A DNA stretch of 64,000 nt, taken from the NCBI GenBank assembly GCA_043228905.1, contig JBHGNT010000021.1, positions 4,588,001 through 4,652,000 on the forward strand, in the 5' to 3' direction. A model generated the notes under the pieces. The model was not told where the DNA came from and did no database searches. It saw nothing but the letters and a program-made list of their open reading frames with translations. The position numbers and the translations under genes are program-made. The stretch is from Azolla caroliniana (Eukaryota; Plantae; Polypodiophyta). This document shows, piece after piece, positions 19,532-61,700 of this stretch (its first letter is position 1; the number at the start of each line of letters is the position of its first letter).

Positions 19532-22500
19532 CTTCCCATCCCACTACAAGTTTGGAGCCCAATATTAGTTTACCTCACAAGTTCGATGGCACGAGGAAGC
19601 ACTTCCGAGGGTTCATAAATCAGATCAAGCTTATTATCCAACTACAACCTCAACGGTATGCGGATGATTTTCGTCAAGTTGATCTCATTGGGGCCCTTCT
19701 ATCCGGAGCTGCACAAGCCTGGTTTGCACCGTTGGTCAAAACTTCATCACCACTTCTACAAAATTTCCCGCCTTTTGGGCAGAGTTTGAGGCAACATTTG
19801 GGGATACGGACCAACGCCGAACTGCCATCACCAAACTCTATTCATTACATCAAGGTATGCGTCTGGTATCCGTTTATGCCTCTGAATTTAGACAATTAGC
19901 ATGTGATGTTCAGTGGGATGGACAAGCTCTCTGCGACCATTTTCGTCAAGGCCTTCGAAGTGAGATTAAAAATTTATTACTCAACTTTCCAGAGCCTACG
20001 TCATTGTCGCAAGCCATCACGCAAGCAGTTAGTTGTGACAATCGGTTGTTTGAGCTTCGTCAAGAGGAACGAGCAACTTCAAGGTGGAAACCCTCTTCGA
20101 GATATTCTCCATCGTCATCATACGATGACCCCGTATCGATGGAAATTGATCGAAATCGCGACCCACCACTCACCGACGGCCCCAACAACGGGAAAACGAC
20201 GGTGTCCAACTACAGTAGGAGCCATGTGGTTGGACAGTCCGCATTCGTGTCGCTCCCATAGTTCGGCTACATCGACGGAAGATTTCTCCTTTCCGGTAAA
20301 CATCCATTTCAAGTCGATTTCAATTAGACCTACGGGGAGCATAAAATTTGGTACGGATCAAACCTGGAGACAAATGGAAAACCGCCTTTAGAACGCGCTA
20401 CGGACATTTCGAGTATAAGGTAATGCCTTTCGGCCTCACTAATGCTCCTGCAGTATTTCAACATATGATGAATGACATATTCCGAGAATATCTAGATCAC
20501 TTTGTTGTGATCTATCTAGATGATATCTTGGTCTTCTCTTTGAACATCAAGGAGCATACTCGACATGTCAGGTTAGTCCTCGCCAAACTTCGCGGGCACG
20601 AACTTTATGCTAAAAGTGAAAAATGTGAATTTGATCGTACTTCTGTAGAGTTTCTTGGGTATGTCATTTCAACATAGGGAATCATAATGGACACACGAAA
20701 AGTCAAGACTATCCAAGAGTGGGCTGTCCCAACTCGGGTATGAGATGTGCAATCATTCCTTGGTTTTGCCATTTTTTATCGTCGCTTTATCAAAGGATTC
20801 TCAGTAATCGCACAACCTCTCATTTCTCTTACCCCGCAAGGATGCTACTTTTGAATGGACAACAGCTGCCCAAAAGGCGTATGACTTGCTGAAACAAGCC
20901 TTTACTATGGCACCAATCCTTTTACATCCTGACCCAACTAAGCCTTTCCAAGTCAAAACGGATGCTTCCGATTTCGCCATTGGGGCGATCCTCTCCTTGC
21001 TAGATGAGGTTGGTGTGCTTCACCTGGTGGCTTACTACTCCCGCAAATTTACGGCCCCAGAAATCAACTAACCCATATACAACAAGGAGCTTCTCGCTAT
21101 TATTGTTGCTTTTGAAGAATGGAGACCCTATTTAGCCGGGGCGCAACACCGTATCCAAGTGATTACTGATCACAAAAACCTAATATACTTTTCTACCACA
21201 CGAACCTTAAATCGTAGATAGGCGCGATGGTCGACCTTCTTGGCAGACTATGATTTTGAGATAATCTTTCGACCCAGCGCTGAACACACGACGACCAATG
21301 TCTTATCCCGTCGCTCTGAGTTCGAGCTCACTCCGAAGGATGAAGCCTATGTTTAGTACTAGAGTTTGTTAAAGCCTAACCAATTCTACAACTTTGCGAC
21401 TTGCTTGCTCCAGGATGACTCTTTGCTCAAGCAAATAACAGAAGCCACTACGACTGACAAGTTCGCCATAGAGGTCAAGGCAAGTATCACAAACCCCTCC
21501 CATGAACCCAAAAGACCTGATTTTGCTCGTTTTACAATTCAAGATAATCTTTTCTATGTCCCAGAAGGTCCTTGTCGGACAAGTGTGCTTCACGAGGGTC
21601 ACGATGATCCACTTGTTGGTCATTTTGGCGTTGCGAAAACCTTGGAGTTGATATCTCGGGGATACTGGTGGCCACAACCATGGAAATTGATCAAAGAGTT
21701 CGTTAAGTCATGCGATGTTTGTGTTCACTCTAAAGCATCTCATCATCGACCATATGGTCTCCTTCGCCCTCTCCCAATCCCCAAACGGCCTTGGGCCTCT
21801 CTTTCCATGGATTTCATCATTGACCTTCCCTTTGTTGGAGGTTATGACTCGGTATTCGTCATGGTCGATCGTTTCACCAAGATGGCTCATTTTGCTCCAT
21901 GTGCCAAAACCATTACCAGAGAGAAGACAACCGATTTGTTTTTCAAAAATGTGGTTTGACTACATGGACTCCTGAACAATATTCTTCTTATCAAGGACCA
22001 CAATTTGTTTCCAATTTCTAGCGGCGCCTTCTGCAAACCTTTGGTTATACTGTGAATCTATCTTCCGCTTATCATCCGCAAACTGATGGAAAAACGGAGC
22101 GGGTTAACCGAATCTTGGAACATTACTTGCAGTGTTCTCTTAGTTACTAACAAGACAACTAGGTTGACCTTCTCCCACTTGCCAAGTTTCCCTACAACAA
22201 CTCTCTGCATGCATCTATGGGAGTTACTCCATTTTTCACCAACTACAATCTCCACCCCCGCTTCAACATTTTGCTTCCCTCTGACTCTGTCAATCCTTCT
22301 GCGGAGGATTGGGCACGTCTCTTGGAGGACATACATCATGATCTTTCCTTGGAGCTCACCCTCGCTGGCGAACGCTACAATGAGCAAGCTGAACGTCATC
22401 GCTTAGATGCTCCCCAGTTTGAGGTAGGAGACTTTGTTTGGCTTCTCCGTCGCAATATTGCCACCACTCGTCCTTGTCCGAAACTTGATTACAAGAAGTT

Positions 22501-22883
22501 AGCCCCTTTCCGAATCGTTGAGAAAATTGCTTCCATGGTTGTCCCTTAGAGCTACCATCGCACTTTTGTATTCATAATGTATTCCATGTCTCCCTTCTAG
22601 AACCTCACCATATATCTGAAAACCCCGGTCAACACCCATCTCCTCCACCACCAATCCAACTCTCAATTGGAGAAGAATATAAGGTCGACCAAATTCTTGA
22701 CTCTCGTCTCTTCCGTCGCCAGCTTCAATACCTTGTCCTCTGGAAAGGGTACCCGATCTCCGAAGCAACATGGGAGCCGGCACATCATCTCAGGCATGCC
22801 CCGGACATAGTTCAAGAATTTCATGAACGTTATCCACAAAAACTGACCGCGGGTCCAAGGAAGTAGCCTTAGAGGGAGGATAA

Positions 22884-23372
22884 TGTCATAAATAGGATGC
22901 CACATGGAATGGTGGGGGTTGAACCCATGGCCTTCTGGTCTTATTGGTCAACCTTACCAATTGAGCTACATCTATCTATGTATTATTGTATTGTGTAAAA
23001 CTCAACTTATTTCATTATAGATTGATCACTAGAACTTTCAAGAACCTTCTAGAGAATGCATCTTCATGCACTCTCTAGAAGTTTCCATGCACTCTCTAGA
23101 AGTATTCTAGCTTTCATGCATACCTCCACATTCTTGTATAAATACTGGGGTGCACCTTGATTACAATCAAGGTGAACAACACCAGTTACGAAAGCATATA
23201 CTGTTCTTGTTTATTTGTCTATCCTCTCTCTTGCTTTTTCTCTTGTCTATGGTCTCTCTCTCCCACTATCTCTTAATATTGTGCCTCGTCTACTTGTCCT
23301 TGACAATCTTGTGATCTTGCTTATGCTCTCGCTCTCTCTTAGTACTTAGCCTCATTCCACCTGTTCGTGACA
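22884..23372 (+). repeat. T1 3' LTR
   Basis: Direct repeat of 18181-18672, preceded by PPT and followed by TSD TTATG. Confidence 0.93.
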
Positions 23373-26300
23373 TTATGTCTCTATTGTGGCGGCCCTGACC
23401 ATTTGATCCACTCTTGCCCAAAAAAGGGACCCCGTCAAACACCACATCGTGTGGATGGGGATGACATTTTCTGCCAACAGGAAAACTCCAATGTCCAATT
23501 GCAGTAGGGGCTGTGCATCTGGACCACAAGAGTCGACAATTATGTCATGGGCCCAATCAACCGACTTCCTCGACAACAAGCTTCACGCTTCCGATCACTC
23601 TTCAATTTGGCTCTACCACTCTGAAGGGAAAAGCTTTGTTGGATTCTGGGGCTACGTTGTGCTTTATTGACATCATGTTTGCATGGAAACACAACATTCC
23701 AAGAAACAAAATAACCGTCCCAATTCTAGTTGAAGTGTTCGACGGTCAAACGCTCTCTTCTGGTGCCATCACATATACAACAATTCCTTTGGGTCTCCAC
23801 ATAGGAGCCCACCAAGAAGAAATTACTTTTAACCTCATCACATCACCTTGACATCCTATCATCTTGGGGTTATCATGGCTTGAGAATCACAATCCAGGCG
23901 ATCTCGCTCCATCAACTTCACCTTGAATTTTCACTCACAAGGGATTACATCCACCCTTCTTCGAGCCAATGCTCCACCATTTGTTTGGCTGCCTACTATG
24001 GTGAGGACTGTCTCAATGGTTGCTCCCACTCATGTTTTAGGGACAACTCCCATTTATGCTCTAGTGAGAACCACATCAATGGTTGCTCCGATTCCATTTT
24101 CTGCTCCAGTGAGGACCACGTCAACGGTCTCTCCCACTCATGTTTATGCTCCGGTGAGGACCGGGTTATCGGTCATTCCCATTTCCTCTTCAATGAGAAC
24201 CATGTCAACGATTGCTCTAATAGAAACAACATCGATAGTTAGTTCCGTGTCGGCCTCAGAAACAGTTCCAACTCTTGCTCGGGTAAGCGATATAGTGATG
24301 ATTGCATCCATTTCTAATTCTAAGGACATGGCGGTCATGTCCACTCTAGATACTACTCTATGTACGAGCTCTTTTCCATCAAAATACAATGATTTCTCTG
24401 ATGTATTTGAGAAGAAAAATGCTGATCACCTACCTGAACACGCACATACGATTGTCCAATTGACTTGAAAGATGGTGCTTGTCCTCCATTTCGCCCTATT
24501 TATGGGTTATCTGAACCTGAACTCAAGACCCTCAAAATATACATTGAAGAGAATCTCACAAAGGGATTCATTCGCCACTCAAAATCTCCAGCTGGCTCTC
24601 CTATTCTATTTGTCAAAAAGAAAAATGGAACGTTACGCCTATGTATCGACTATCGTGGGCTCAATTGAGTCACAGTTCGAAACCGCTATCCAGTACCTCT
24701 AATTCTCAAACTCCTCGACCGACTTCGGGCTGGGTGTATATTCTCCAAAATCGATCTCAGAGGCGCCTACAACTTGGTGCATATCAAGCTTGGAGATGAA
24801 TGGAAAACGACATTTCGAACCAGGTATGGGCATTTTGAATACATGGTAATGCCATTTGGTCTCACAAATGCTGCTGCTATTTTCCAGCATATGATGAATG
24901 ACATCTTCCAAGAATATCTAGAACAATTTGTGGTCATCTATCTCGACGACATACTTATCTTCTCACAGGACTACGTAGAGCACACCAAGCATGTTCGACT
25001 TATCTTGTCCAAACTTCGGGAACATGGACTTTATGAGAAACCCGAGGTGTGAGTTTGATCAAACCTCAATTGAATTCCTCGGGTATGTCATTTCATTTGA
25101 TGGTCTCACTACAGACGAGAAGAAAGTCCAAACGGTTCAAGAGTGGGAAGTCCCCACCAGGGTCAAGGATGTGCAATCATTTTTGGGTTTTGCCAACTTC
25201 TATCATCGATTCATTCAAGGATTCTCTACATTGACGCAACCACTTATAGCACTCACTCGGAAGGATTCCCTTTTTGCTGGACTCCTACAACCCAACTAGC
25301 ATTTGAGACACTAAAGAAAACTTTTACCTCGGCTCCAGTACTTCTACACCCAGATCTGACCAAACCATTTACGATTGAAACTGATGCTTCTGACTTCGCC
25401 ATCGGTGCCATTCTCTCTCAATCAGATAACAATGGGATTCTTCATCCTGTTGCCTTTTATTCTCGGTAGTTCACACCTCCCGAGATCAACTACCCAGTTT
25501 ATGACAAAGAACTCTCTGCCATTATTGCAGCCTTTGAAGAATGGCGTCCTTACTTAGCAGGCACCCGACAATGTGTCCAGGTGGTGACTGATCACAGGAA
25601 CCTCGTCTACTTCACATGTTACGAAAATGAGAAGCAAGAGTGGCTGAGATGCAGCGGAAGGACTGTGTGTGTGTATGCACGTAAGGCAAAATAGAGAGAG
25701 AGAGAGAGAGAGAGCTTAAGAGAGATAAAAGATTGTATACTACATTAACCAAAATACTTCCAACAGTAACTAAGTTACAAGGGGTTGGTTTAAATACCGA
25801 CTAAACTAGGGCAAGTGCCCTTTCTACTATTTACAAAACTAGCCTGGTATGACCATGAGCTAGTGTGAAACCTATTACTATGGGAAGTTGAGTTTAATTC
25901 TCAACATGCCCCTTCGAACACAACTTCCATCTGTCGAAAAGTTGTTTTGGTTCGGTCTTCGGAATCCGGCTTCCGACATTCGTAATCCTCGAACTGGATT
26001 GTTCGGCTTTTCGGCTTCGTGCTCGGTTCGATTAACTATGTGTTGCGTACTCACGTTGTTGTGAAGAAAACCGTCCACAAGCGGAATCGGTGCACCGGAG
26101 CGTAGGAACTGGCTCTTCATACACGTGCGCCTTATGTTGTACATAGAAGATCCTCGGTAGGTAGGAAGTTAATAGGAAACGACTCCTTCCTTGCCTATAA
26201 AAGGAGGGAGACAAGGAGGGGAGAGGGATCGGGAAGTAAGGGAGGATGAAGTGCTGTCGGATTGTGGGCCGAAGGCTTCTCTCTCTTCCAAACTCCATAG

Positions 26301-26670
26301 CTTCTTTCTGTGCAGGTTTCGGGAGGCTCGCGCTGCTCTGAGGAATGCCCGAGTGCTTCCGGCAGCACCTCCAACCTACTTCTTCCTTTCTGTACGTTTA
26401 GAACAGGCATCGGCATCTGTTCGCCGGCCTGTTCGGTTGTAACCGACTTCGTGCTTGTTGTTTGTCTTGTTTATATATATTTCGACATACATTCGTGTCT
26501 CTCTGTGTCGCTGTCGCACTCGCGTCTCTGCGTCGAAGGGCCATGTCCCTGTGAATCTACGCTCGCACCTTGTGGGTCTCTTCCCCTCTCCTTTTCTCTC
26601 TTGCTCTTCGGTACAGGACCCCCGAGGTCCTGCCTCATTCCACGCATCCGCGAGGGATACCTCGACATCT

Positions 26671-26688
26671 TGGTGAACCCGACGTGAA
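26671..26688 (+). other. Primer-binding site complementary to tRNA-Trp
   Basis: TGGTGAACCCGACGTGAA equals the reverse complement of the plant cytosolic tRNA-Trp 3' end (...TTCACGTCGGGTTCACCA, recalled); identical in B (41984-42001), C (54178-54195) and D (59402-59419). Confidence 0.85.
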
Positions 26689-26710
26689 GGAGGCGGCAGA
26701 AGAGCAGAAG

Positions 26711-28837
26711 ATGAAGGGGTCGGATCTTGCAGAGGCCATGGCTTTGGCCGTGGATCGGATATTGAGTGCACGCAAGGGCACCGGCGCCCTCGACAGAGCC
26801 ATTGAGGCGGTCGTCGGTACGATCGGCCGGTTCAGCGGAAAGGATGCCACGAAGTATTTGGCGTCCTACGGGGCAGAAATGCTGATGCGGGACATTCCGG
26901 AAGAGAGGCGTCTTGCCGGGTTTCCTCGAGTGGCGATGCCGAGCATCCACGCGGAGGTGCTCGAGGTGCGGACGGAGAGCCGTACCTGGGAGGAGTTCGA
27001 AGGCCGACTCCTAGAAAAATACGGGCTGGACGACGCGCTCCGGCTTTCGAAACGGGACTTCATGGAATGGGTGGAGTTCCACGGCAAGGGAAGAAACGTG
27101 ACGGCACTCCTCCGGGAGTTCGAAGAACGCTTTGCGCGCCTTTCGGCGCTTGACCGAGCCGTTCTGGATACGAGCCGGGTCCTACTGTTCGTCAAGTCGG
27201 TGGACGAGCGGGACCGGGGCCAAGTCGGCTCCTTGCTGGAAACCGAGGACGGGCTGACAACCGACTGGGCTGCGGTTAAGAGAGTCTATGGCCGTTTCGA
27301 TAAACGGCGAGAATGGGCTGACAACGGGGCGGCCGGTGCGGGCTGTGTCACAGCAAGGAGGCTTGAACCGGCACCGCAAGTGCGAAGGGAAGAAACCTGG
27401 GAATGGCTCGAAACCGGTCCGGCTTCGACCGGCATGGTCAATGGCTCGTCCGGAGGAGCAGCGCTGGAGGAGTTGACGCGGGCGATAAAGGATCTCCAGA
27501 TCGCCCAGACTCGAAGGGAAGGCGGCGAACCGGCTTGTGACTGACGGCCGGCAGCAGGGAACAAGTGCATGTGGTGTGACGAGGTCGGCCACATCCGGAA
27601 GGACTGCGGCGATTTCGCAGAAGCGTTGAGGAACCGGGTGGTGTACCTGTGGGAAGGCCGGGTGCACGCCGGCGACACCAGGAGGGCCCTGAACCGAAAC
27701 GACGGGCGAGGAGGAATGAAGAGACTGATGGAAGAGGCAGCGGCCCGACACGTGGAGGCCATCCACTACTCGGCGTCGGCCGACATTCGGGTCGGGGGCA
27801 GCGAGGCCCGAAAGGAGGGCAAAGACGGATTCTGGTCGGCAATGCTGGAAGGTCTTGCCGGCGCACGGCTAAGGAAAGATGAAACGGACCACGCTGAGAG
27901 ACGGGTCCGGGAAATAACCGGGTGGAGCGATCCGGTCGAGGAGAAGACGGGCTTTGTAGAAGCCGCCTGCCGGAACTACGAGGCTCTGGTTGAAGACAAA
28001 CGGGTGGGGAAAGCCGGAGCGGCCGGGCCCTCACAAAGGTACGAGACCCGATTCGGGCAACGACGGAACGATGCCGGTGGGTCCAGCTCGCAAGATAACC
28101 CCAGGAAGGGTGGATACCGATTGGGGACGGAAATAGAAAGGACTACGGATCTACGAAAGGTCCTAGAAGAACGGATCCTCGACAGCAAAGTGGAGCTATC
28201 ATTGCGGGAGGTGCTAGGGATCGCCAAGAAGGAGTTCCACGACTCCATTGTAGACTTGGTGAAACGGAAGAGGCTGTCGACGGAGACGGAACCGGAAAGA
28301 CCGGTAGAGGTGCGAACGACGCACATTGACGACTCGGCGTTGGCAGATGAGTGGGTGGAGAGCCACTATTCGAGGCCACACTGGGCCCGAGCGACCACGG
28401 AGACCCCGGTAAAGATCGGAGATGTTCAGGAACCGGTGGTGGCATTGGCGGACCACGGTTCGGAAATAAACCTGATGTCCATGGACTTCTATAAGAAGGG
28501 GAAGTGGCCGATCAACACCAAGCATGGGTGGAAGATACGGGCGGCGACGCGCGCCACCGAGGAACTGCATGGGGCCTGCCCGAACGTGCGAGTCAAGATC
28601 GGCGACGTCGAGATTGACCAGCACTTCTTCGTACAGGAGACGTCCTCGCACCCGGTCATATTAGGTGAACCATACATCACGATGGCGTGGATGGAGACCA
28701 AGGTGCTAGACAACGGTTCGGCCTACGCGAGGGTCAAAAGCCAAGACGGGCGCCATTCGGTCCAATTTCTGACGGTGCGGCCGAACCACGAGAGAAACCG
28801 CGAATCCCTCGGTGGCGAGAACCGGGAGGATTTTTAG
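26711..28837 (+). pseudogene. Element A gag-protease ORF with one premature stop (27542-27544)
   Basis: ORFs 26570-27544 and 27569-28837 are in the same frame; CCHC knuckle CMWCDEVGHIRKDC; protease-like ALADHGSEINLM...VILGEPY; ends EDF-TAG. Confidence 0.88.
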
Positions 28838-31800
28838 AGAGGGCTGCCAAGGCGTGGGGCCGAGACAGCCTGGACACTCGGAAAAGACCCCACGACTGTA
28901 CGATAGGTGGGAAATTTTGCTTCTCCAACAACGGAGGGTGTATGGTAGTCGGCATCGTCGGCCGAGAAAGGACAAGGGCGGAAGTGCGACTTCGAGCGTG
29001 CGGAGTTCTCGGCCCGAACGAGGAAATCAGCGGAGCCGTGGAGGCGGTCTCCTTCGACGACACCTTGGGAATGCTGAGGAAGGTAGCCGGAGAAGACCTT
29101 AGCGAAGACCGGACGATACCGGTATGTTCCGAAGAGATGTACGAAATCATCGCGAACTTCAGTCGGGGGCTCGGGTCGGATCGGACGGCCCGAGTTAGCA
29201 CGAAGTACAAGACTGTGGACCGGAAGGTAAGGCAAGTCGCGGCACCCTTGCCGGAGGGCAGCGAGTCCCGAATCAGAGGGGTTGCGTCGGACCCCAGTTT
29301 ACGAGATCCGGCCTGCATAGGACACACCTTCACTGACGGGATGCTCCGGGAGCTCAAGATCGGTGGGGGCAGGTTCCTACTGCCGGCGGAGGAAGACCGG
29401 TTTCGGAGAATGCTCGGAAGGCACGGGAAAGCCTTCGCATTTTCACCAGAAGAGATAGGGTGCGTAGACCCGACGATTGTGGAGCTGATGGTGATATTCA
29501 CGGTACCACATGTGCCGTGGAATCTCAAGCCGATTCCAGTACCGAGAGCTCACATCCCGGAGTTGATGGAGTTATTGAGGCAAAAAGTCGATATGGGCAT
29601 TCTCGAACCGTCGAGTGCCCCATACTTGAACCGATGGTTTACCGTACCAAAGAAAAACGGGACATTGCGTTTCATTCAGGACCTGCAGCCGGTCAACAGA
29701 GTGACCATTCGGAACGCAGGAATCGGACCGACCATAGACGAGTTCGCAGAGGCCTTCGCCGGAAGGTCGATTTACTCGGTCGGTGATCTGTACTCGGGGC
29801 ACGACCAGTTCCAGCTAGCCGTGGAGAGCAGAGACATTACGACGATGCGAACTCCCCTCGACCTGGTGCGAATGTGTACCCTGCCATAAGGAGGGACCAA
29901 CTCGGTGGCCCACATGGTGAATGCAATGAACAAGGTACTGAGGGATTGCATCCTGGACATCACCATGCCGTTTCTAGAAGACATCCCGATCAAGGGGTGC
30001 CCGGTGGAAGAGAAGGACGAGACAGTCGGGCCGGACGGATGCCGGCGATTCGTGGCGACACACATTGACGACTGCGAGAAGGTGCTACAAAGGGTAGAGG
30101 ATGCGAGGCTCACCTTCTCCGGGGAGAAATCGGCCTTCGGGCAACCGGAAATCCTGGTGGTCGGACACCTATGTGGACCATATGGCCGGAAGCCGTGTCC
30201 GGCAAAGGTAGAAGCCATCTCCGCGATGAAGACCGACTGTAGCTCGGTTACAGAAGTTCAAAGGTTCCTGGGGGCATGCGTGTTCTACCACATATGGATC
30301 CCGCATTACGCCCACGTTGCGGAGCCGCTATACGGGTTGCTGAAGAAAGGGCGAAAATTCGAGTGGCGAGACGAGCACACGGAGTCGGTCCGGAAGCTGA
30401 AGGAAGCTCTTGCGGCAACACCGGTGCTCCGGAAGGCTGTCTACGAGAAGGGTACCCCGGTATACATAACGGTGGATACCAGTCCGACCGGGATCGGATG
30501 GGTCGTCAACCAAGAAGACGAGGACGACATTCGGTTCCCGATCCGATTCGGCGCGAAGGTCCTCAGCGAGTGACAACGAGGGTACGCCCAGGTTAAACGC
30601 GAACTCTGGGGTATCGTTTCGGCAGTAAAGGCCGACAAAGACTACCTGATCGGGAGAGAAGTGATTATCGAGACGGATTGCCTGCCAATTCTCGGCATGG
30701 TTTCCGGATGCGCGACACCGGACCTGGCGATGCTCAGGTGGATAGCGTACATCAAGTCCCTGGACCCGGAAATACGGCACATTTCCGGAAAGGACAACGC
30801 CATGGCCGACATGCTTTCGAGGGCGAGGTTTCATGACGAGGGCGGCATGGTTTCGGAGGACGAAGAAGTCGGCGTAGACTTCTTCGAGGCAGCGTACGTG
30901 ACAACCAATGGGACGAGCGCTCCGGCACTTAACGACTTCGACGAGAGCAAGTACGACGGCGAGTGGCTCTAGATCGGTGGATTTTTGAGGACGATGACGC
31001 CGGATGCGTCGTGGACGAAGGACGAGGCCAACCGGATCCGGAAGAAAGCTTACTGATTCTTTCTCCGGGACGGATACTTATGGAAGCACCCGAAGAAGAG
31101 GAACGACGTCCCGCTCCGGGTGGTGGCGACGAAGGAAGAACAGGAGGAGCTGCTGACGGCCTACCACGACAGCCCTTGGGCCGGACATCGTGGAACGTGG
31201 GCCACGTTCGAGAAGATAAAGGGGAAGTACTGGTGGCCGGGACTGTACCGGGACGTGCATTGGTTCGTGACAACTTGCGAGAGCTGTCAGATGCACTCCA
31301 TAGTCCGACATCGGGACGAGCTTCACCCTACGTACCCTCCGACCATCCACTTCAAATGGATGGTAGACCTGGTGACGATGCCGATGGGAGTAGGACAGAT
31401 GCGGTATCTAGTCCTGGCTCGGGAAGATCTGACGAACCAGGTGGAAGGCCGAGCCCTTCAGAACAAAACGACCACGGCCGTATGTCGGTTCCTAATTGAG
31501 GACGTGATATGCCGGTACGGGTGCGTCGGGAAGATCGTGGCTGATCGCGGGGAGTTGGACGCCGAAGAGGCCGAGGAGCTGTTCGACCGCCTAGGAGTCA
31601 AGCTCTCGCTTACCACTGCGTACAATCCGGAGGCGAATGGGAAGGTGGAGCACGGACACGGACCGATCGTCAAGGCGTTAGTTCGGGCATGTGGGGGGCA
31701 AGTCGGGAACTGGCCGCGACTGCTGCCTTACACGTTGTGGGCTGACCGAACTACGCACAGTTCGGTAACCGGATTCATGCCGGTAGAGCTGATGTTTGGG

Positions 31801-32301
31801 CAGAAGCCGATCATGCCGATGGAATGTACGATCTCCTCATGGGCAACCGTGGACTGGAGAGTCGAGATGAGCCGGGAGGAACTGTTGACGGCGTGCATAT
31901 GGCAGCTCGAGCGAAGACCGGAGGACGTAGAGCGCGCTACGGAAAAGCTTCGGGTGGCAAGGATGAGGAACAAAGCCCGGTTCGACCGAACGCACCGGCT
32001 CCGACCGAAGAAGATCGAGGAAGACGACTGGGTGCTAGTCTACGACAGCAGCCTCGACAACCAGCACCGAGCAACACGGAAGTTCGCAAGAAGGTGGTTC
32101 GGGCCTTACGTGGTACAAAGCGCCAACGACAACGGGACGTACCATCTGGCGGAGCTCGACGGCATGAGAATGGTGATACCGGTAGCTGGGAAACGGATCA
32201 AAGCATTCAAGAAGCGTCACGACGACGAGCCGGATCCGGATAACCTGGACCGGGACGACGAACGATCCGAAACCGAAGAAGAACCGACGGGCGGGGAATA
32301 A
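28834..32301 (+). pseudogene. Element A pol (RT, RNase H, integrase) in the -1 frame, with 4 premature stops
   Basis: One frame with stops at 29887, 30571, 30970 and 31054; RT GDLYSG..GGTNS..FLED (FLDD in B and D); RNase H VDTSP; integrase HHCC (H..GHRG..CESCQ), catalytic core and GPY motif. Confidence 0.9.
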
Positions 32302-33046
32302 AGGCTGGACCAGTTTTCTCCGTCCCAACTCAATTCGGCGCATACCGGTGGATGCGCGGTTAGGTGGGGGCGGATGTCGTGAAGAAAACCGTCCACAAGC
32401 GGAATCGGTGGATCGGAGCGTAGGAACGGGCTCTTCATACACGTGCGCCTTATGTTGTACATAGAAGATCCTCGGTAGGTAGGAAGTTAATAGGAAACGG
32501 CTCCTTCCTTGCCTATAAAAGGAGGGAGACAAGGAGGGGAGAGGGATCGGGAAGTAAGGGAGGATGAAGTGCTGTCGGATTGTGGGCCGAAGGCTTCTCT
32601 CTCTTCCAAACTCCATAGCTTCTTTCTGTGCAGGTTTCGGGAGGCTCGCGCTGCTCTGAGGAATGCCCGAGTGCTTCTGGCAGCACCTCCAACCTACTTC
32701 TTCCTTTCTGTACGTTTACGAACAGGCATCGGCATCTGTTCGCCGGCTTGCTCGGTTGTAACCGACTTCGTGCTTGTTGTTTGTCTTTTTTATATATATT
32801 TCGACATACATTCGTGTCTCTCTGTGTCGCTGTCGCACTCGCGTCTCTGTGTCGAAGGGCCATGTCCCTGTGAATCTACGCTCGCACCTTGTGGGTCTCT
32901 TCCCCTCTCCTTTTCTCTCTTGCTCTTCGGTACAGGACCCCCGAGGTCCCGCCTCATTCCACGCATCCGCGAGGGATACCTCAACAACGTATCATTGCAT
33001 GTTGCGTAATCGATCAATTGCGTATAGTGTGTGTGTCGCTCGCAGT

Positions 33047-39300: not shown

Positions 39301-42300
39301 CAAAACCGTTCCTCCTCCGCCGGCAGTAGAAAGCCACCCCCACTGACCTTGAGCACCCGTAGCATTTTGTTGGTGAACCGGTGTCCTATGCCGGCCGGAT
39401 CCCGTAAACTTGGGTCCGACGCGACCTCTTTCATCCTTTCCTCATTTCCCTCCGGCAAGGGTGCTGCGTCTGGCCTCACCTTCTGGTCCATAGTCTTGTA
39501 CCTCGTATCCACATGGGCTGTCTGATCCAACTCGACCCTTTTCCCGAAGTCGGCAATGACTTCGTACATCTCTACCGAACTAAATGGAATCACTTGGTCT
39601 TCTCTAAGGCCCTCTTCGAACACCTTCCGTACTTCTCCCATGGTGTCGTCGAAAGAGACCGCCTCCACGACGCTGGTAATCTCTTCATTGGGGCCGAGGA
39701 CTCCGTACGCCTTGAGATGTTCCTCTGCCCACTTCCTTTCCCGGCCGCTAACGCCGGTTATTGCGCAACCTCCGTTATCGGAGACCCAAAACCTCCTACC
39801 TATAGTACAAAACTTCCTACCTATGGGGTTCCTCCGGGTCTCTGGACTATCGTGGCCCCACGCCTTCATAGCCCTCTCTAAAAATCCCCTCGGTCATCGC
39901 TGTCTAGAGTTTTGCAGTTATGCTCGTGGTTCGGTTGCACGGTCAGGAATTGGATGTAGTGTCGTCCATCTTGGCTCTTCACACATGCATATGCTGAACC
40001 ATTATCCATCACCTTGGTCTCCATGCATGTTGCCATAATGTATGGTTCGTCGAGTATCACCGGGTGCGAGGATGTCTCCTGCACGAAGAAGTGTTGGTCG
40101 ATCTCGACATCTCCAATCTTCACACGTACATTTGGGCACGCCCCGTGCAACTCTTCTGTAGCGCGTGTCGGCGTGCGTATCTTCCACCCGTGCTTGGTAT
40201 TGATTGGCCATTTCCCTTTCTTATAGAAGTCCATGGACATCAGGTTAATCTCGGAACCGTGGTTTATCAACGCCACCACCGACTCCTGGACGTCTCCAAC
40301 CCGAACGGAGGTCTCCGTAGTGGCTCTTGCCCAGTGCAACTTTGAGTAGTGGCTCTCAGCCAACTCTTCCTCTAGGGCCATGTCTTCCAGGTGCGTTGTC
40401 CGCACCTCCACGGGCTTCTTCGGTTCCGGCTCCGTCGAGAGCCGTTTCCACTTCACCAAGTCCAGGATGGAATCGTGGAACTCTTTCTTTGCAATTCCAA
40501 GCACCTCCCTCAGTGAAAACTCCACCTTGCTATCAAGGATTCATTGTTTGAGGACCTTTCACAGGTCCGTCGTCCTCTCTATCTCGGTGCCCAGACGGTA
40601 ACCAGCCTGCTTCATCCGATCTTGCGGGCCGGAACCACCAGAATCATTCTTCCCCGGTCCGCTTCGCGTCTCGTACCGTTTCGAAGGTCCGTCTCCCACG
40701 GCCTTCCCTGCTCTCTTATCCTCCACCAGAACCTCGTAGTTCTGGCACGTGGCTTCTACGAAACCGGTCTTCTCTTTTACCGGGTTGTCCCATCCGGTAA
40801 ACTCCCGGATCCGCTTCTCCACGTGGTCCGCTTCCTCCTTCCTTTGTCTTACTACGGAGAGGCCTCGTAGCACCAATGGCCAAAACCTAGAGTCCTTCAT
40901 CCCTTTGCTGCCGTCGTCACTCCCTACCTGGATTCCGGCCAATGCCGAGTAGTGAATGGCTTTAGCGTGTCGTGCCGCGGCTTCTTCCATCAACTGCTTC
41001 ATTCCGCCGCGCCCAATATTCAACTCCAGGGCTTTCCGGGTCTCGCTAGCGTGCACCCGCCCGTTCCACAGGTACACAACGTTAGTCCTGAGTGCTTCTG
41101 CGAAGTCCGCGCACTCCTTCCGGATGTGACCGACCGCATCACACCACATGCACCGCTGCCTTGCCGGAGGCCTCCGGTTGCGAGACGGTTTGCCGCTGTC
41201 TCTCCAGGCCTGCATGTTCTGGAGATCACGCACCATTTGCGTCAGCTCTTCCAGAGGCGCTCCTCCGGACGGGCCCTTGACCACGCCGGTCGAGGTTGAG
41301 CCCGTCTCAAGCCAATCCCGGGTTTCTTCCTTTCGTGTTGGCGAAGGTTCCTCGAACTTCCTTGCCGGAACGGGTCTCGCCGCCGTCGAACTTTAGTTGC
41401 CCCACTCACGCCGCTTGTCGAGTCGGCTGCAGACTCTTTTAACCATGGTCAAGTCGGCTGTCAGCCCATCATTTGTCTCCAGCAGGAGACCCACTTGATC
41501 CCAATCCCGCACGTCCATCGCTTTGACGAACAACAGGTTACGACTCGTGTCTAGCACGGTCATGTCTAGTGCCGAGAGCCGCGCGAAGCGTTCCTCAAAC
41601 TCCCGGAGGAGCGCCGACGCGTTCCTCCCCTTTCCGGGGGTCTCTAGCCCGTACTTCTTGAGGAGCCGATCTTTGAATTCTCCCAGGTCCGGTACCTAGC
41701 CTGTACCTCGAGCACCTCTACGTGGATGCACGGCGTTGCCACCCGAGGGAATCCGGCCAGTCGCCTATCCTCCGGGATGTCCCTCATCACCATCTCGACT
41801 TGGTAGGCCTCTAAATAGCTCGTGGCGTTCTTCCCACCGAACCGGCCATCGAACTGACAATCGCTTCGATGGCCTTGTTGAGGGCTCCTGTGCCCTCGCG
41901 AGCACTTACTATCCGATCAAAGGCTGCCACCATGGCTTCGGCAAGCTCTGATCCCCTCATCTTCGACTCCTCTGACGCCTTGTTTCACGTCGGGTTCACC
42001 AAAGATGTCGTGTAGTTACGCTCTCGTGTAGGAAACTAAGGGGGGACCGTGGGAGCCTTGGACCGAGGAATGCAAGAGATCAAGGGGAGAGAGAGCATGA
42101 GCGTCGAGCCGGCGAATGCCTGCTTTCGGCAAGTGGCGCTTACCAGCCGAACGAATTGCAACCACGTGTTCAGATCGAACAGAGATGCACACCCACCAGA
42201 CAGTGAAAGGGAAACACGTAGAAAAGCACAAAGAGACAACAAACAGGAGAGTCATTTACAACAATAAGGATTACAACGCTTTGCAAGATTACAACCGGCG

Positions 42301-42744: not shown

Positions 42745-44949
42745 ACGTGTGTTGGGTTTGGTTGAGTTTCGTGGGCTCCTTCAATGTAGCTCCAGTAACC
42801 TTGCCCGACAAGGTATTGATGCATCTTGTATTCCCAAGATGTGAAATTTGTTTCATTATGTCGATTTCTTCTCTGTTGATGAGCCGGTTTTGTTGATCGT
42901 CGGCGTGTACCACAACACAGTTGAATAGATTCAATTGAGCAACCACACACATTGATACCATGCTACAAAAATGAGGAGCAAGAGTGGCTGAGATGCAGCG
43001 GAAGGACTGTGTGTGTGTATGCATATAAGGCAAAATAGAGGGAGAGAGAGAGCTTAAGAGAGATAAAAGACTATATATTACATTAACCAAAATACTCCCA
43101 ACAGTAACTAAGCTATAAGGGGTTGGTTTAAATACCAACTAAACTAGGCCAAGTGCCCTTTCTATTATTTACAAAACTAGCCTGGTATGACCATAAGCTA
43201 GTGGAAACCTATTTCAATGGGAAGTTGAGTTCGACTCTCAACATCACCACTACTCGCATTTTGAACTGGAGGCAAGCGTGATGGTCGACCTTCTTGGCTG
43301 ACTACGACTTTGAAATTGTTTTTCATCCCGATGCCCAACATGGTAAAGCCGATGCCCTATCTCGGCATTTAGAATTCGAAATTCGACCAGGAGATGAGAC
43401 CTACAATCAACAATCACGTTGTCTACTATAGCCACATCAGATTCAACTCTTTGCAGCTTATATGGGTGCGGATGAATCATTACTCAATGTAATAGCCATA
43501 GATACTGCCATTGACAAATTTGCAAAAGAAATTAAGGAGAATCGAGTCAATAAATCAACCATAAAGGAGGTACGTAATAGTCAAGACCAATTTGTGTTTC
43601 GAGATGGTTTTCTTTTCCTGAACAACTTAATGTATGTCCTAGATGATCCTTGTCGTATCCGTATCATGAAGGAATGCCTAGCTAGACATTTTGGTGTTGC
43701 AAAAACTTTGGAGTTAATCTCTAGAAGTTATTGGTGGCCACAACCTTGGAAACTTGTTAAAAATTTGTGAAAACATGTGATACATGTGCCCACACCAAAG
43801 CAATACATCATCGTCCCTACGGTCTACTTCAACCTTTGCCAATTCCAAGTAGGCCATGGGCCTCCATCTCGACGGATTTGATCACCGACCTTCCCGACAT
43901 TGAGGGATTCAATTCAGTATTGGTGGTGGTGGATAGATTCACAAAGATGGCACATTTATTCCATGTTCTAAGGCAATTTCAGGGATGTAAACAACAGATC
44001 TCTATTGTTAACAAATATTGTGCGCCTTCATGGTTTACCGGATGACATTATCTCTGATCGTGGTCCCCAATTTTTGTCTAATTTCTGGAAGCACCTCTTC
44101 TAGACTCTTGGAACTTCCACAAAATTTTTGACAGCCTTCCATCCTGAGACAGACGGCCAATCGGAACGAGTCAATTAGATCCTAGAGCAATATCTCCGAT
44201 GTATGATAAGTTATCAACAAGATATTGGATCAAATTTCTTCCAATGGCTGAGTTCGCCTACAACAATACTCTCCACACATCAACTAGCGTAACACCCTTC
44301 TTCGCAAATTATGGGTTCCACCCACACTTTAGCATAGCTATCCCTGCTAGTTCTGTGAATCCATGTGCTGAAGAATGAGCTCGTCTGATGAAAGAAGTGC
44401 ATCATGAACTATCCCTAGAACTCTCCATTGCTCAGGAATGACACAAAGAGAAGGCTGATCAACATCGATGGGTTCTGCTTGGTTTTAAAGTCGGTGACAT
44501 GATCTAGCTATTACGTCGGCATATTCCGACAACTCGTCCATGCAACAAACTTGATTACAAAAATTTGGGTCCATTCTGCATCATTGATAATGTCAACCCT
44601 GTGGCTTTCCGTCTTGCTCTTCCATCACACTACCGAATTCACAATGTCTTCCATGCATCACTTCTTGAGCTCTATCATCCATCCTCAATTCTAGGAAGAA
44701 GCATCGAGCCACCTCCCCTTGTGGCTTTGGCGACCGGGGATGAGTATGAAGTTGAGACCATTCTGGACTCGCGGAAGAGCCGACGAAAGTTCCAGTATCT
44801 TGTATTATGGAAAGGATATCCCATCTCTAAGGCTACATGGGAGCCTGCTAGAAATTTACTAAATGCCCTGGAAATGGTTCATGATTTTCATTTCCGATAT
44901 CCTTACAAACCTTCACCTTCTTGAAGTCGGCACTTCAAGGGGAGGATAA

Positions 44950-45322
44950 TGTCATGAACATCAACTCGAATGTGAACCTTAGGCCCTTGTATATATATAT
45001 TTCTCCTAGACAAACTTTAGACTTCAAACCTTTGTATAAAGAGTGGTATGTAGGACTCAATATGTAAGACCCAGTATGTAAGACTCATTATGTAAGACTC
45101 ATTATGTAAGACTCAGTATGTAAGACTCAGTATGTAAGATTCAGTATGTAAGACTTGATATACAAGAGTATGCTTGATATTATAGTATGTAAGACTTGGC
45201 ATGAGCATGCTTATCATGCATCACTACATGTATAAAAAGGGTTGATCTCCCTTGTTAACATCAAGGAGATCAACACTAGTGATGGAATAGATATTTTTAT
45301 CTCCAATTGTTCATCCGTGACA
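44950..45322 (+). repeat. T2 3' LTR containing 8 tandem 14-bp units TATGTAAGACTCAG (45047-45158)
   Basis: Follows chromodomain and PPT; TGTCA...TGACA termini; TATAAAA at 45231. Confidence 0.85.
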
Positions 45323-46237
45323 ATTGCAGTCAACACAATTTCTCATGGAGTTAAACATGGATCAATTGAGGAAGAAAGTCGACTTCAAGGAAAAATGCTA
45401 TATTGTTGTTTTGTGAACTTCAATAAAGCCTTTGATATTGTACCAAGGAGCGAGCTTTGGAAAAGAAGTATAGAGATCGAAACACCATTAGAGTGCAGAG
45501 TAGTTGCAACACGATTGTATGAGTAAGTCCAGTGGCAATTGAAAATGGATAGTGGTTCCTTGAAGTACTTCTTGAGTAAGATGGGGTACCAACAAGGGTG
45601 TCCACTCTCTCCCACACTTTCTGGTCTGTGTTAGTAAACTTGAAGAAATAAATTGTAAGAAAGGTTGCAAAAAAAGGATTAGACAACCCAAAACTCATGC
45701 AAGAGTTCATTTTTATACTCTATATGTTGGTGATGTCTTATTTTCATGTACTTTGGATGATATGCAACATTTACTTGATGTATTGGAAACATTGTGTCAA
45801 ATCATCAAGCTAATTGTTAATGTGCTCAAAACAAAAAATGATGAAATAAAGGCAATACAACGAAGACACTACCCCACTTTTACATACAAGGGAGAATTGA
45901 TACAAGTGGTCCAAAGTTTCAAATATATTGTGATTAATGTCCCTATCGACAAATAGGTGGAATGTGTGCTACAAATCTAGAATCCAAGTAGGTTGGAATA
46001 GTTACTATATGTTTGAGAATCAATGCAACCAAAGTGATACTCAAGGATGGGAAGTGAGGTTGATGTTATTCAATAATATGGTGATCGAAGTGTTACTTTA
46101 TGGAGTAGAAGTCTGGGGTGGCATTATCTCATTTGATGCATGGAATGAAATAGAGAAAATGCAAAAATGGTTATTACATGGTTCTAACATTATACATTGT
46201 CATGGTATTAGCTCAACATCCAAAGAGTATACTAGTA
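45323..46237 (+). mobile_element. Degenerate LINE reverse-transcriptase fragment (RTE-like)
   Basis: LYCCFVNFNKAFDIVPRSELWK, GYQQGCPLSP, degenerate LYxDD, FKYI, VLLYGVEVWG; many stops. Confidence 0.75.
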
Positions 46238-48645: not shown

Positions 48646-49035
48646 ATGAAAACCGGAAGAGAACCCAATGAAAACCAAAAGAGATCCGGAAATCGGATCA
48701 GATGGACCCGGTGAGAACCGGAAGAGAAGACATATTTGTAAATATGTTATGAGTAAGCCAATTGAGGCTATATTTGTAAATAGCCCTAAGTTCATATAAG
48801 TATAAATATGACTTAGGGCAATCACTTTGTAAGGTTGTTGTCATATTGTTGTATGTGTATAATTGTTGTATAGAGAGAGCGAGAGAGTAGATATAGAGCG
48901 ATACTCTGTTGTAACCACCGCTCGGCGAAGAAACAAAGCTCGAGGTCGTTGCCTCCGAGTCTCTGATTGTATCTTTCACATATAGTGAAGGTTTGGAGTC
49001 TGTGGGATCCCGTGGTTTTTCCCTATTAGGGTTTT
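48646..49035 (+). mobile_element. Truncated LTR fragment related to the Copia G LTR
   Basis: Shares GACCCGGTGAGAACCGGA, GGCTATATTTGTAAATAG, TATAAATATGACTTAGGGCA and CCGTGGTTTTTCC with 54774-55498. Confidence 0.75.
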
Positions 49036-58779: not shown

Positions 58780-61700
58780 TGTCGTGAAGAAAACCGGCCA
58801 TAGGCGGAATCGGAGAGAAAGCGCATAAACCGGCCCTTACACGGATGAATGCGTGACTTGGTATTTTGTACACGAATCAGTGGGGATAAATACTAAGCTG
58901 CACGCATTTATTAGGGGGGGGATTGTGCGTATCCCTGTCAGAGGGACAGGGAATAAAGGGAATAGGACAAGAGAAAAGGGGTATCGCGCGCGAGGGAGGA
59001 GGAGGTGTTGTTGCAGATCTGGGTGCCAAGCCTCTCTCTTCTCCTCCGTCCGTCGTTCTCTGCGGGTGTCGGGAGTTCGCTACCTCTACTTCGGGGGCAG
59101 CCCATGTGCTTCCAGCAGAGTCTCTCCTTTTCCCCCTTTTGTTTCTTGGAGTTGTGTGAGTGTCGTCGGTGTGCGTGAGTAGGGTCCCTGTATCGGGTCC
59201 GTCACCGCCTTGTCGGTTGTAACCGTCGGAGTTTGTAATCTCTTGTCATTGTAATTAAGTGTTACGTTCTATATCTCTCCTTCTCGCTTCTACGTGTCTG
59301 TGAATCTCTTTCCCTGTCTCTCTCTCTATCTCGCTCCTCGGTCCAAGACCCCCGTGGTCCCGCCCCTTTCTACACGTACGCGCGTAACAACGCGACATAT
59401 TTGGTGAACCCGACGTGAAAGGGCGGCAAAGGAGTCGAAAGATGAGGGGATCAGAGCTAGTAGAGGCAATGGCGGTGGCCGTCGACCGGCTGGTGAGCGC
59501 TCGCGAGGGAACGGGTACCCTTGACAGAGCCATCGAATCGATCGTCGGCTCTATAGGCCGTTTCGGAGGGAAAGACGCCACAAGTTATTTGGAGGCTTAC
59601 AGGGCCGAAATGATCATGAGGTATATCCTGGTGGACAGACGGCTGTCCAAATTCCCTCAGGTGGTGACGCCGAGCATCCATGTGGAGGTGCTCGAGGTGC
59701 TGGCCAGATGCCAGACTTGGGAGGAGTTCGAGCTGCAGCTCCGCGAGAAGTATGGGTTTGACGACTCGCTCTGGCTGTCGAGGCGAGGGTGGAAAGCCCC
59801 GGAAAAGGGAGGAACACGTCGGTGCTCCTCCAGGAGTTCGAAAAACGGTTCGCGCGGCTGTCGACGCTGGACTGGACGGTGCTCAAAACAGGTCAAGTAC
59901 TGTTGTTTGTCAAGTCGGTGGATGCGCTCGACAGGGAAAAGGTGGGTCCCTATTGGAAACGGACGAAGGGCTCACGACGGACTGGGCTGTGGTAAAATGG
60001 GTCTGCAGCCGTTTCGACAAACGACGCGATTGGAGCGACGGAAGCACGTCGTGGTCGGGGCCGGTCCTGGGGAGGAGGCTCGAGGAGCCGGTTTAGGTGC
60101 CGGCTAGGAGGAAGGAAGAGACCTGAATCTGGCCGGAGTCGGGGTCGGCATCGAACGACGTGGTCAGAGGCCCATCCAGAGGAGCGGCTCTGGAGGAGCT
60201 AACACAGATGGTGCGCGACCTGCAGATCACACAGGCCTGAAGAGACGGCGGTGAACAACCTCGCGACTGGAGGCCGCCAGCTGGGCAGCGGTGCATGTGG
60301 TGTGACGCGATCAGTCACATTCGGAAGGATTGCGCGGATTTCGCTGATGCGCTCAGGACCAACGTGGTGTACCTCTGGAACGGGCGGGTGCATGCGAGCG
60401 AGACCTGGAGAGCCCTGGAACTGAATACGGGGCGCGGCGGAATGAAGAGGTTGATGGAAGAGGCCGCGACACGACACGTCGAAGCTGTTAACTACTCAGT
60501 GTCGGCGGGAATTCGGGTCGGGGGTGATGAGACCCGGAAGGCGAAGGACTCCGGATTTTGGCCGCTAGTGCTAGAAGGCGATCCGGTCGAAGAGAAAACG
60601 GTGTTCGTAGAAGCCGCTTGCCAGAACTACGAGGTTCTGGTGGAGGACAAACGGGCAGGAAAGGTCGGAGGGGTTGGTCCTTCGAGGTATGAGACCCGGT
60701 TCGGACCGAAATCGACCGGTGCCGACAACCCAGGTGTGCCGGATGGGAAGAAGTAGGAGGGGTTTCGGTTGAGCACCGAAATCGAGAGAGCAACGGACCT
60801 ACGGAAGGTCCTTGAAGAGCGAATCCTCGACAGTAAAGTGGAGCTGTCGTTGCAGGAGGTGCTGGGAATCGCCAAGAGGGAGTTCCTCGACTCTATCCTA
60901 GACTTGGTGAAGCGGAACAGGCTCTCGACGGAGCCGGAACCGGAGAAGCCGGTGGAAGTGCGGACCATGCACCTGGAAGACGGAGCCCTGGAAGATGAGC
61001 TGGCGGGAAGCCACTACACGAAGCCGCATTGGGCCTGGGCGACTATGGAAACCCCTGTACGGATCGACAACGTTCTGGAACCGATGGTGGCGTTGGTAGA
61101 CCATGGATCCGAAATCAACCTGATGTCCATGGATTTCTACAAGAAGGGTAAATGGCCGATCAACACCAAGCATGGCTGGAAGATACGAGCAGCGACGCGC
61201 ACCACAGAAGAATTACATGGGGCCTGTCCGAATGTACGGTTGAAAATCGGCGATGTCGAGATCGACCAACACTTCTTCGTGCAAGAGACATCCTCGCATC
61301 CGGTTATACTAGGAGAGCCATATATCACAGCGGCACAGATGGAGACCAAGGTGTTGGACAACGGTTCAGCCTATGCAAGAGTCAAGAGCCAAGGTGCTGG
61401 ACGGGCATCACTCGGTCCAGTTCCTAACGGTGCGACCAAACCACAAGCGTAACCGCGAGGCCCTCGGGAGCGAAACCCGAGGGGATTTTTAGAGAGGGCT
61501 ATCAAGGCGTGGGGCCGCGATAGTCCGGACACCCGGGAAGAACCCCACAAATGTATAGTACGGAAGAAGACCTGTACCATAGGTAGGAAATTTTGGTTCT
61601 CCAACAGCGGAGGTTGTACTATAACCGACGTCAGCGGCAGGGAGAGGAAGCGAGCGGAGGAGCGGCTCAGGGGATGCGGAGTCCTCTTCCCCGACGAGGA

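Follow-up and report, generated by a model that had tools for sequence, protein, structure and literature searches.

The stretch of Azolla caroliniana DNA analysed here (64,000 nt, contig JBHGNT010000021.1, positions 4,588,001 to 4,652,000; hereafter the window) contains a decayed Ty3/gypsy retrotransposon with long terminal repeats (LTRs), element A, in which gag-protease and pol are encoded in different reading frames. Its gag-protease frame ends at the heptamer G_GAU_UUU with a stop codon directly behind, and the frame for reverse transcriptase (RT), RNase H (RH) and integrase (IN) follows in −1. Judged from sequence, this arrangement very probably reflects a programmed −1 ribosomal frameshift, which would be stimulated by a predicted H-type pseudoknot 6 nt downstream. 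The two-frame layout, the heptamer, its fixed geometry, covariation in the first stem, synonymous constraint and recent activity were observed directly. A preliminary description of the window had proposed a functional −1 recoding element between gag-protease and pol; frames, covariation and a dip in synonymous divergence make this, with high probability, the best reading.

Two reading frames in the window and in the genome

GGATTTTTAG occurs at only three sites in the window, 28828 (+), 61483 (+) and 39887 (−), located in element A and in the related copies D and B, respectively. As described earlier, G GAT TTT TAG terminates gag-protease in all three; in D, the protease open reading frame (ORF) is broken upstream and ends at 61452, so that only the final protease codons are in register with the site. 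All three copies are decayed. Element A is 6,930 nt long and its LTRs are 97.9% identical over 612 nt. Over the 430 codons preceding the TAG, its gag-protease frame contains no stop; it features a zinc knuckle, DUF4100 and a protease-like domain, and the −1 frame reads G-F-L-E-R-A and continues into RT, RNase H and integrase. The Pfam matches of the protease were weak and below the cut-off (11 of 24 homologs hit gag-asp_proteas at E ≤ 0.1, best value 0.0055), and a PDB sequence search with the protease profile gave no match. The core of the domain, D-H-G (window 28402-28425), is near-invariant across the 24 homologs; in retroviral aspartic proteases, the core is usually D-T/S-G.

The searched genome comprises 523 Mb. 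A 17-mer of the site yielded 1,703 exact matches compared to 0 for the reversed control. Since this number may reflect amplification alone, weight was placed on tests across families. For a sample chosen independently of the site, the first 70 of 2,394 genome matches to a protease pattern were taken. GGATTTT was present at the expected distance in 59 of these copies. The pol frame was scorable in 65 and was −1 relative to the last protease codons in 60, +1 in 3 and 0 in 2. The first 40 of the 70 copies were refetched at 9.3 kb for dating by their LTRs, which were at least 99% identical in 11. All 11 stop two codons into the site, and both frames are long in 8 (694-789 codons upstream, 1,156-1,194 codons in −1). 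The preliminary description had pointed to the youngest copies as those in which a single frame would speak against recoding; the copies dated as youngest retain two frames. Seven of the 40 were skipped for a missing heptamer; in these, ORFs reach at most 754 codons and direct repeats at most 98.1% identity. Among 60 long loci, some of them with identical LTRs, no single gag-pol frame was found, the longest ORF being 1,204 codons compared to the approximately 1,880 needed. At G000:C1:18737873-18739562, four matches to the protease motif follow one another at intervals of 360-550 nt, forming a short tandem array of the amplified junction region.

Conservation of the site across families

Among 80 metagenome loci, a pol match was obtained for 62, of which 58 have pol in −1 and 4 in +1. 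Loci L203 and L236, at first scored +1, proved to be in the −1 frame at the site with an indel further down, and were treated as decay. The stop was located in 77 loci, and 70 of these carry an in-frame GG[AGT]TTT[TC], in 63 cases as GGATTTT. The same break was found in families down to approximately 63% protease identity and in independent assemblies. Natural variants of the heptamer with pol in −1 are G_GUU_UUC (L237:1258), G_GGU_UUU (L235:1569) and G_GAU_UUC (L213:4793). In L237, re-pairing at −2 would be possible, yet pol lies in −1 and the spacer is 6 nt.

A set of 120 homologous proteins included 87 with a scorable tail. Of these tails, 61 end in DF or NF, 20 have DF or GF five residues before the end, 3 end in VF plus one residue and 3 are of other kinds. 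In the first two kinds, the dipeptide is located 22-42 residues past a fixed motif. The named homologs stem from a fern, liverworts and a moss, and those from Riccia, Physcomitrium and Adiantum, seen as proteins only, finish at the matching Asp-Phe. In P0045, P0059, P0086, L233, L235 and L239, the gag-protease stop comes five codons later than the heptamer and falls within the predicted pseudoknot. A distant contig, L366, shares the heptamer and the spacer, along with the predicted pseudoknot and pol in −1. It was one of two loci from a scan of prokaryote genomes, the other, L367, stopping short of the junction. Both are retrotransposon contigs of this plant family inside bacterial genome assemblies, likely as contamination. 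No relatives turned up among viral contigs, which were scanned both with RT and with the protease alignment.

Synonymous-site conservation, a test suggested in the preliminary description, was analysed in 19 codon-aligned −1 elements. Synonymous differences between pairs amount to 0 of 136 for GAT and 1 of 106 for TTT of the heptamer, compared to 42-49% for Asp and Phe codons elsewhere. Over the first 24 pol codons, synonymous divergence is 0.307. This value falls below 0.60 ± 0.03 obtained for 594 overlapping windows elsewhere, the minimum of which is 0.52.

Predicted RNA structure downstream of the heptamer

The structure was assessed in an alignment of 34 diverged junctions without internal gaps. 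The eight pairs of stem 1 form in 31-34 of the junctions, and double changes occur at 6 of the 8, in line with the covarying stem of the preliminary description. Neither the pairing nor the covariation score was reached by any of 500 shuffles, in a test computed on 11 pairs including three inner pairs that fail, and slid controls were 26-39% paired. The spacer between heptamer and core stem is 6 nt in 32 rows and 5 nt in 2. Structures 5-9 nt past the heptamer are in the canonical range (PMC5009743). The stems given previously for the three window copies were found as written, apart from a C·A mismatch in A (28847/28865) and a G·G as innermost pair in B. The inner GGC/GCC helix of the same description was rejected, as its three pairs form in only 19, 26 and 14 of the 34 junctions.

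Instead, the loop of stem 1 can pair with a strand 12-17 nt beyond stem 1. The signal was originally delimited at 28871, a range that covers stem 1 and leaves out the second pseudoknot strand of A (28888-28893, opposite 28854-28859). Native loop/3' duplexes have a mean of −12.7 kcal/mol compared to −10.8 ± 0.4 kcal/mol for swapped partners (0 of 20,000 permutations). The result holds for 22 hand-picked divergent rows, and leaving the register free over 100-105 for native and swapped pairs again gave 0 of 20,000. Stem 2 occupies registers 100-105, and compensating changes in it were observed in L180, L209, L227, L231 and L233. In 18 of 29 elements, none of the 62 other windows downstream scores as well as the native position, and the best partner lies at register 98-105 in 33 of 34 rows. 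Based on these predictions, the stimulator is likely an H-type pseudoknot of approximately 8 + 6 bp. Comparison with the Rfam frameshift elements yielded a single match, eiav_FSE, on the wrong strand and with 13.3 bits (gathering threshold 40, E = 1), which is a chance hit.

Proposed mechanism and alternative explanations

On the proposed −1 shift, most ribosomes would stop after Asp-Phe and release Gag-PR (PR, protease). A minority would be detained by the pseudoknot, lodged at the entrance of the mRNA channel, and tRNA-Asp and tRNA-Phe would slip by one base, with perfect A-site re-pairing on UUU and imperfect re-pairing in the P-site. The slipped ribosomes would yield Gag-PR-RT-RH-IN, so that protease would be as plentiful as capsid, with RT and integrase being rationed.

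Several observations weigh against this mechanism or parts of it. In the genome sample, the heptamer was missing in 11 of the 70 copies (8 altered, 3 without the region) and pol was in a frame other than −1 in 5 of the 65 scorable copies; these look like single-copy decay, only partly dated. Taken row by row, stem 2 beats shuffled 3' segments at p < 0.05 in no more than 12 of 34 cases. Its register was selected from six, a G-run and a C-run make up a large part of it, and its permutation tests are inflated by relatedness of the rows. ViennaRNA, which folds nested structures only, gave stem 1 plus the inner helix as minimum free energy (MFE) structure of D (−23.3 kcal/mol), and the MFE of A favours a fold with stem 2, so that competing folds exist. 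Part of the synonymous dip could come from another function at the nucleotide level. Riccia gene models (P0139-P0211) fuse gag-PR to pol across the junction at differing points, probably through predicted introns.

A −1 shift stimulated by the stem-1 hairpin only, with or without the inner helix, is rather unlikely, although stem 1 is much better supported than stem 2 and the fold of D is of this kind. The pairs of the inner helix form in only 14-26 of 34 rows, and loop and downstream strand change together in divergent families at the near-fixed distance given above.

Separate translation of pol by reinitiation, internal initiation or from a subgenomic RNA, with the structure serving that purpose or packaging, is highly improbable. 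It would be in line with pol being an ORF of its own of approximately 1,160 codons with methionines, and pseudoknots could have other roles. However, in 22 elements the position of the first methionine varies between codons 3 and 111, the reading frame is already open and conserved at the heptamer and beyond, and the synonymous freezing of GAT TTT would be left unexplained.

Splicing to pol as in Ogre elements, with the U-rich TTTTTAG as 3' splice site, or by way of an intron across the stop, is slightly less probable still. TTTTTAG looks like a plant acceptor, and the Riccia models join both frames; however, their joints vary between models. The codon that follows the heptamer was compared in 31 representatives sharing less than 88% identity; it is TAG in 13, TAA in 8, TGA in 4 and a sense codon in 6, a variation that excludes a conserved AG acceptor. 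An Ogre-type spacer is absent; the two frames overlap, and conservation of the residues in the pol frame begins at the site itself. PolyA reads of three runs (313, 188 and 650 placed, mostly 85-95% alike and thus from related copies) cover the junction of A approximately 5-12x, and no joint or indel is listed there, which speaks weakly against splicing or slippage. The splicing that the preliminary description had considered across this point thus finds neither a conserved acceptor nor a joint in RNA.

Readthrough of the stop codon is ruled out, since pol is not in the zero frame. A break inherited by many copies through decay or assembly error, for which the decayed state of A, B and D might speak, is of negligible probability, as an identical break recurs where LTRs are 100% identical and two long frames are open, across families and in independent assemblies.

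A sister clade with pol in the −2/+1 frame

At loci L209 and L220, gag-protease ends in Gln-Val-Phe-x-stop and pol is open for 1,154 and 1,101 codons, respectively, in the −2/+1 frame. Their junction pattern has 95 exact matches in the plant's own genome. In the top 30 of 150 copies found by the protease protein alone, pol is in the −2/+1 frame in 27, in −1 in 1 and in frame 0 in 1, with 1 giving no match. Both frames are complete in 7 of 20 refetched copies, and LTRs are 99-100% identical in several. Comparison of L220 with L354 (L354:4198-4260; G000:C16:14462691-14472591) revealed 338 synonymous and 203 non-synonymous codon differences over 1,099 pol codons. Judged by these sequences, purifying selection acts on an intact pol in this clade, as would not be expected of a parasite mobilised in trans.

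In the tree, the root of which rests on long-branch outgroups, the three rows of this clade group together (100/100) and are nested in a clade (99/99) of −1 families, more −1 elements branching outside the latter. Both types have homologous starts of the pol frame, and the two stems persist in the sister clade (stem 1 with 10-12 bp, stem 2 with 8 bp). The site is AG_GUU_UUU, with a −1 stop directly behind in the main subtype, and the core stem is located 5 nt away compared to 6 nt in the −1 family. An outer C-G pair can be added in 10 of 32 −1 rows, which brings their spacer to 5 nt or less and weakens a shorter spacer alone as a mark of the clade. The spacer contrast is thus not clean, and the change of the slip site is probably the main determinant.

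By codon pairing, a −2 shift would allow tRNA-Phe back onto UUU in both subtypes, a +1 shift in one only. A −2 shift appears the likeliest route to pol in this clade, and we regard it as reasonably probable. With marginally less confidence, we suggest an old liverwort, moss and fern LTR lineage with a pseudoknot-driven −1 shift after protease, one recently active branch of which would have switched to an obligatory −2 shift driven by RNA structure. In this nested clade, the site would have changed to AG_GUU_UUU and the core stem of the pseudoknot would have moved one base nearer, so that slipping by two bases leads to pol. If true, this would be a natural switch from −1 to −2 that arrives at the slip site of arteriviruses by convergence and needs no trans-acting protein.

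For this clade only, it is possible, if doubtful, that pol is reached by a +1 shift or through slippage along the T-run during transcription, or that it is never reached, the elements being mobilised in trans. The +1 and −2 frames are the same, the L220 subtype with six Ts permits UUU to UUU re-pairing at +1, the plant cases in a 2003 survey are all +1 (PMC5009743), and the 10 of 32 rows mentioned above show that spacer length alone does not mark direction. In the commoner subtype, however, a +1 shift on UUU GAC would set tRNA-Phe on UUG, whereas a −2 shift gives UUU in both. The T-run is only 5-6 nt long, and an intact pol under purifying selection disfavours mobilisation in trans. RNA reads of the clade (23, 11 and 4) were too few for a slippage test.

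A distant homolog, P0326, known as protein only, has Val-Phe-Tyr at its end, much as in the −2 clade, which may reflect either kinship or an independent switch.

Comparison with known systems

The Phygy lineage of non-chromovirus Ty3/gypsy elements was described by Neumann et al. 2019 as specific to Physcomitrium, 7.7-10.0 kb in length and with ORF organisation given as 'ND' (PMC6317226). Like Phygy, the elements studied here have a 4-bp target-site duplication (TSD) of the form NCGN, a tRNA-Trp primer site and a coding region that fills the interior (PMC6317226). TSDs among the dated copies are ACGT, ACGG, CCGG, ACGC, CCGT and GCGG. The complement of the primer site of A was found in 5 of 5 tested loci called tRNA-Trp(CCA) by ARAGORN, and Physcomitrium proteins are approximately 57-70% identical over the protease region. 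Based on TSD, primer site and protease similarity, the element is named Phygy-like. It differs in the host plant and in that its organisation is resolved as gag-PR / −1 or −2 / RT-RH-IN. Members of the −1 family are mostly 6.6-7.3 kb long, which is below the Phygy range, whereas those of the −2 clade fall inside it with approximately 7.9-8.0 kb (PMC6317226).

Avian sarcoma-leukosis viruses have a gag-pro/pol layout with a −1 shift after protease. The pro-pol shift of human T-cell leukaemia virus type 1 (HTLV-1), which involves a pseudoknot (PMC7075266), likewise has a heptamer and a short spacer, and rations RT and integrase after protease. In contrast to both, the present case concerns a plant retrotransposon with a single shift and G_GAU_UUU as site.

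The stimulators of umbraviruses and dianthoviruses are bulged stem-loops with long-range pairing. As the preliminary description had stated, their shift sites have the identical heptamer; a stop is located close behind, and G_GA is a listed X_XX exception in −1 heptamers (PMC5009743). The viral sites express an RNA-dependent RNA polymerase (PMC5009743), whereas the structure predicted here is a compact local pseudoknot; the likeness is not taken as a sign of shared descent.

The arterivirus nsp2TF −2/−1 site, GG_GUU_UUU, has no 3' structure and needs nsp1β together with PCBP on a C-rich motif approximately 10 nt downstream (PMC4937337). The sister clade resembles it in AG_GUU_UUU, the long ORF in the −2 frame and the immediate −1 stop, and differs in the predicted pseudoknot from 5 nt downstream and, by eye, in the absence of the C-rich motif. 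It is therefore likened to the arterivirus type for the way its slip site would work and not counted as a member. Lin et al. 2012 (PMC3458567) found with U6A reporters, those with pseudoknots among them, that −2 shifting works best when the spacer is 1-2 nt shorter than the one favouring −1. The core stem of the sister clade is 1 nt closer, in the same direction; those constructs were engineered, whereas here a natural and essential case would be at hand, with the spacer contrast being unclean. Few natural −2 cases are named in a 2016 review, namely phage Mu, arteriviruses and Trichomonas virus 1 (PMC5009743).

Ogre elements share the break between a protease-containing ORF1 and an RT-containing ORF2. 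In Ogre and Bianca, however, the ORFs are on average 172-274 bp apart and Ogre splices (PMC6317226), whereas here the frames overlap at the slippery site. The 2016 review, citing the 2003 survey, lists just two kinds of plant LTR elements in which gag and pol are split, each of them +1 (PMC5009743). No prior description of the signal was found in the literature searched, with most subscription journals beyond reach, and Repbase entries or supplements may note two ORFs. The accessible text of PMC7466625 and of a Chlamydomonas preprint holds nothing on the signal.

Taken from sequence comparison, the system is likely a −1 shift after protease in an LTR family of seed-free plants, plus a candidate −2 branch. 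It would represent a likely case of pseudoknot-dependent −1 shifting in plants with thousands of copies and dozens of natural variants, and would explain why gene predictors put introns across the junction. The −1 family and the sister clade form a matched natural pair, with the same predicted pseudoknot, another slip site and spacing and another exit frame, which makes the question of what sets −1 or −2 direction testable with short reporters.

Annotated features and neighbouring elements

The coordinates of the annotated features are listed in Table 1.

Table 1 Features of element A and of the related signals, in window positions
Feature	Position	Strand	Basis
Element A, decayed Phygy-like LTR retrotransposon (Ty3/gypsy) with stop codons in pol and in gag (27542-27544)	26057..32986	+	LTR pair, ORFs, domains
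TSD ACGT of A	26053-26056 and 32987-32990		element ends
5' LTR of A	26057..26667	+
Primer-binding site, complementary to tRNA-Trp 3' end	26671..26687	+
gag-protease ORF, 3' part (zinc knuckle, DUF4100, aspartic-protease-like domain, D-H-G core), ends Asp-Phe-stop	27545..28837	+
Slippery heptamer G_GAU_UUU, copy A	28828..28834	+
6-nt spacer, copy A, containing the gag-protease stop (28835-28837)	28835..28840	+
Stem 1, 5' strand, copy A	28841..28848	+	alignment, covariation
Stem 2, 5' strand, predicted, within the stem-1 loop, copy A	28854..28859	+
Stem 1, 3' strand, copy A	28864..28871	+	alignment, covariation
Stem 2, 3' strand, predicted, copy A	28888..28893	+
pol (RT-RNase H-integrase), −1 frame entry, interrupted in A	28828..32301	+	ORFs, domains
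Polypurine tract of A	32361..32374	+
3' LTR of A	32375..32986	+
Signal of copy B (heptamer 39887-39881, stop 39880-39878, stem 1 39874-39867/39851-39844, predicted stem 2 39861-39856/39828-39823)	39823..39887	−
Signal of copy D (heptamer 61483-61489, stop 61490-61492, stem 1 61496-61503/61519-61526, predicted stem 2 61509-61514/61543-61548)	61483..61548	+

A fourth, more divergent copy is located at 49964-54774 (−) and has an LTR-like pair of 92.5% identity. It is devoid of the protease end, the frameshift signal and the pol start, the flanks being joined near 53202-53242. A decayed Ty1/copia element (55640-58760, +) and other gypsy fragments (19683-25900 and 42959-48700), which we take to be Tcn1-like by their motifs, lie among the Phygy-like copies.

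Clustered matches to the tRNA-Trp 3' pattern were observed at G000:C8:17.80-17.82 Mb, approximately 1.2 kb apart, and at C16:4.99-5.11 Mb, and represent tandem arrays of tRNA genes. Inside the integrase region of A, a few reads in the three RNA runs skip approximately 105 nt (window 31266-31372) or leave at 31409 with the same loose end; they probably stem from one expressed variant copy.

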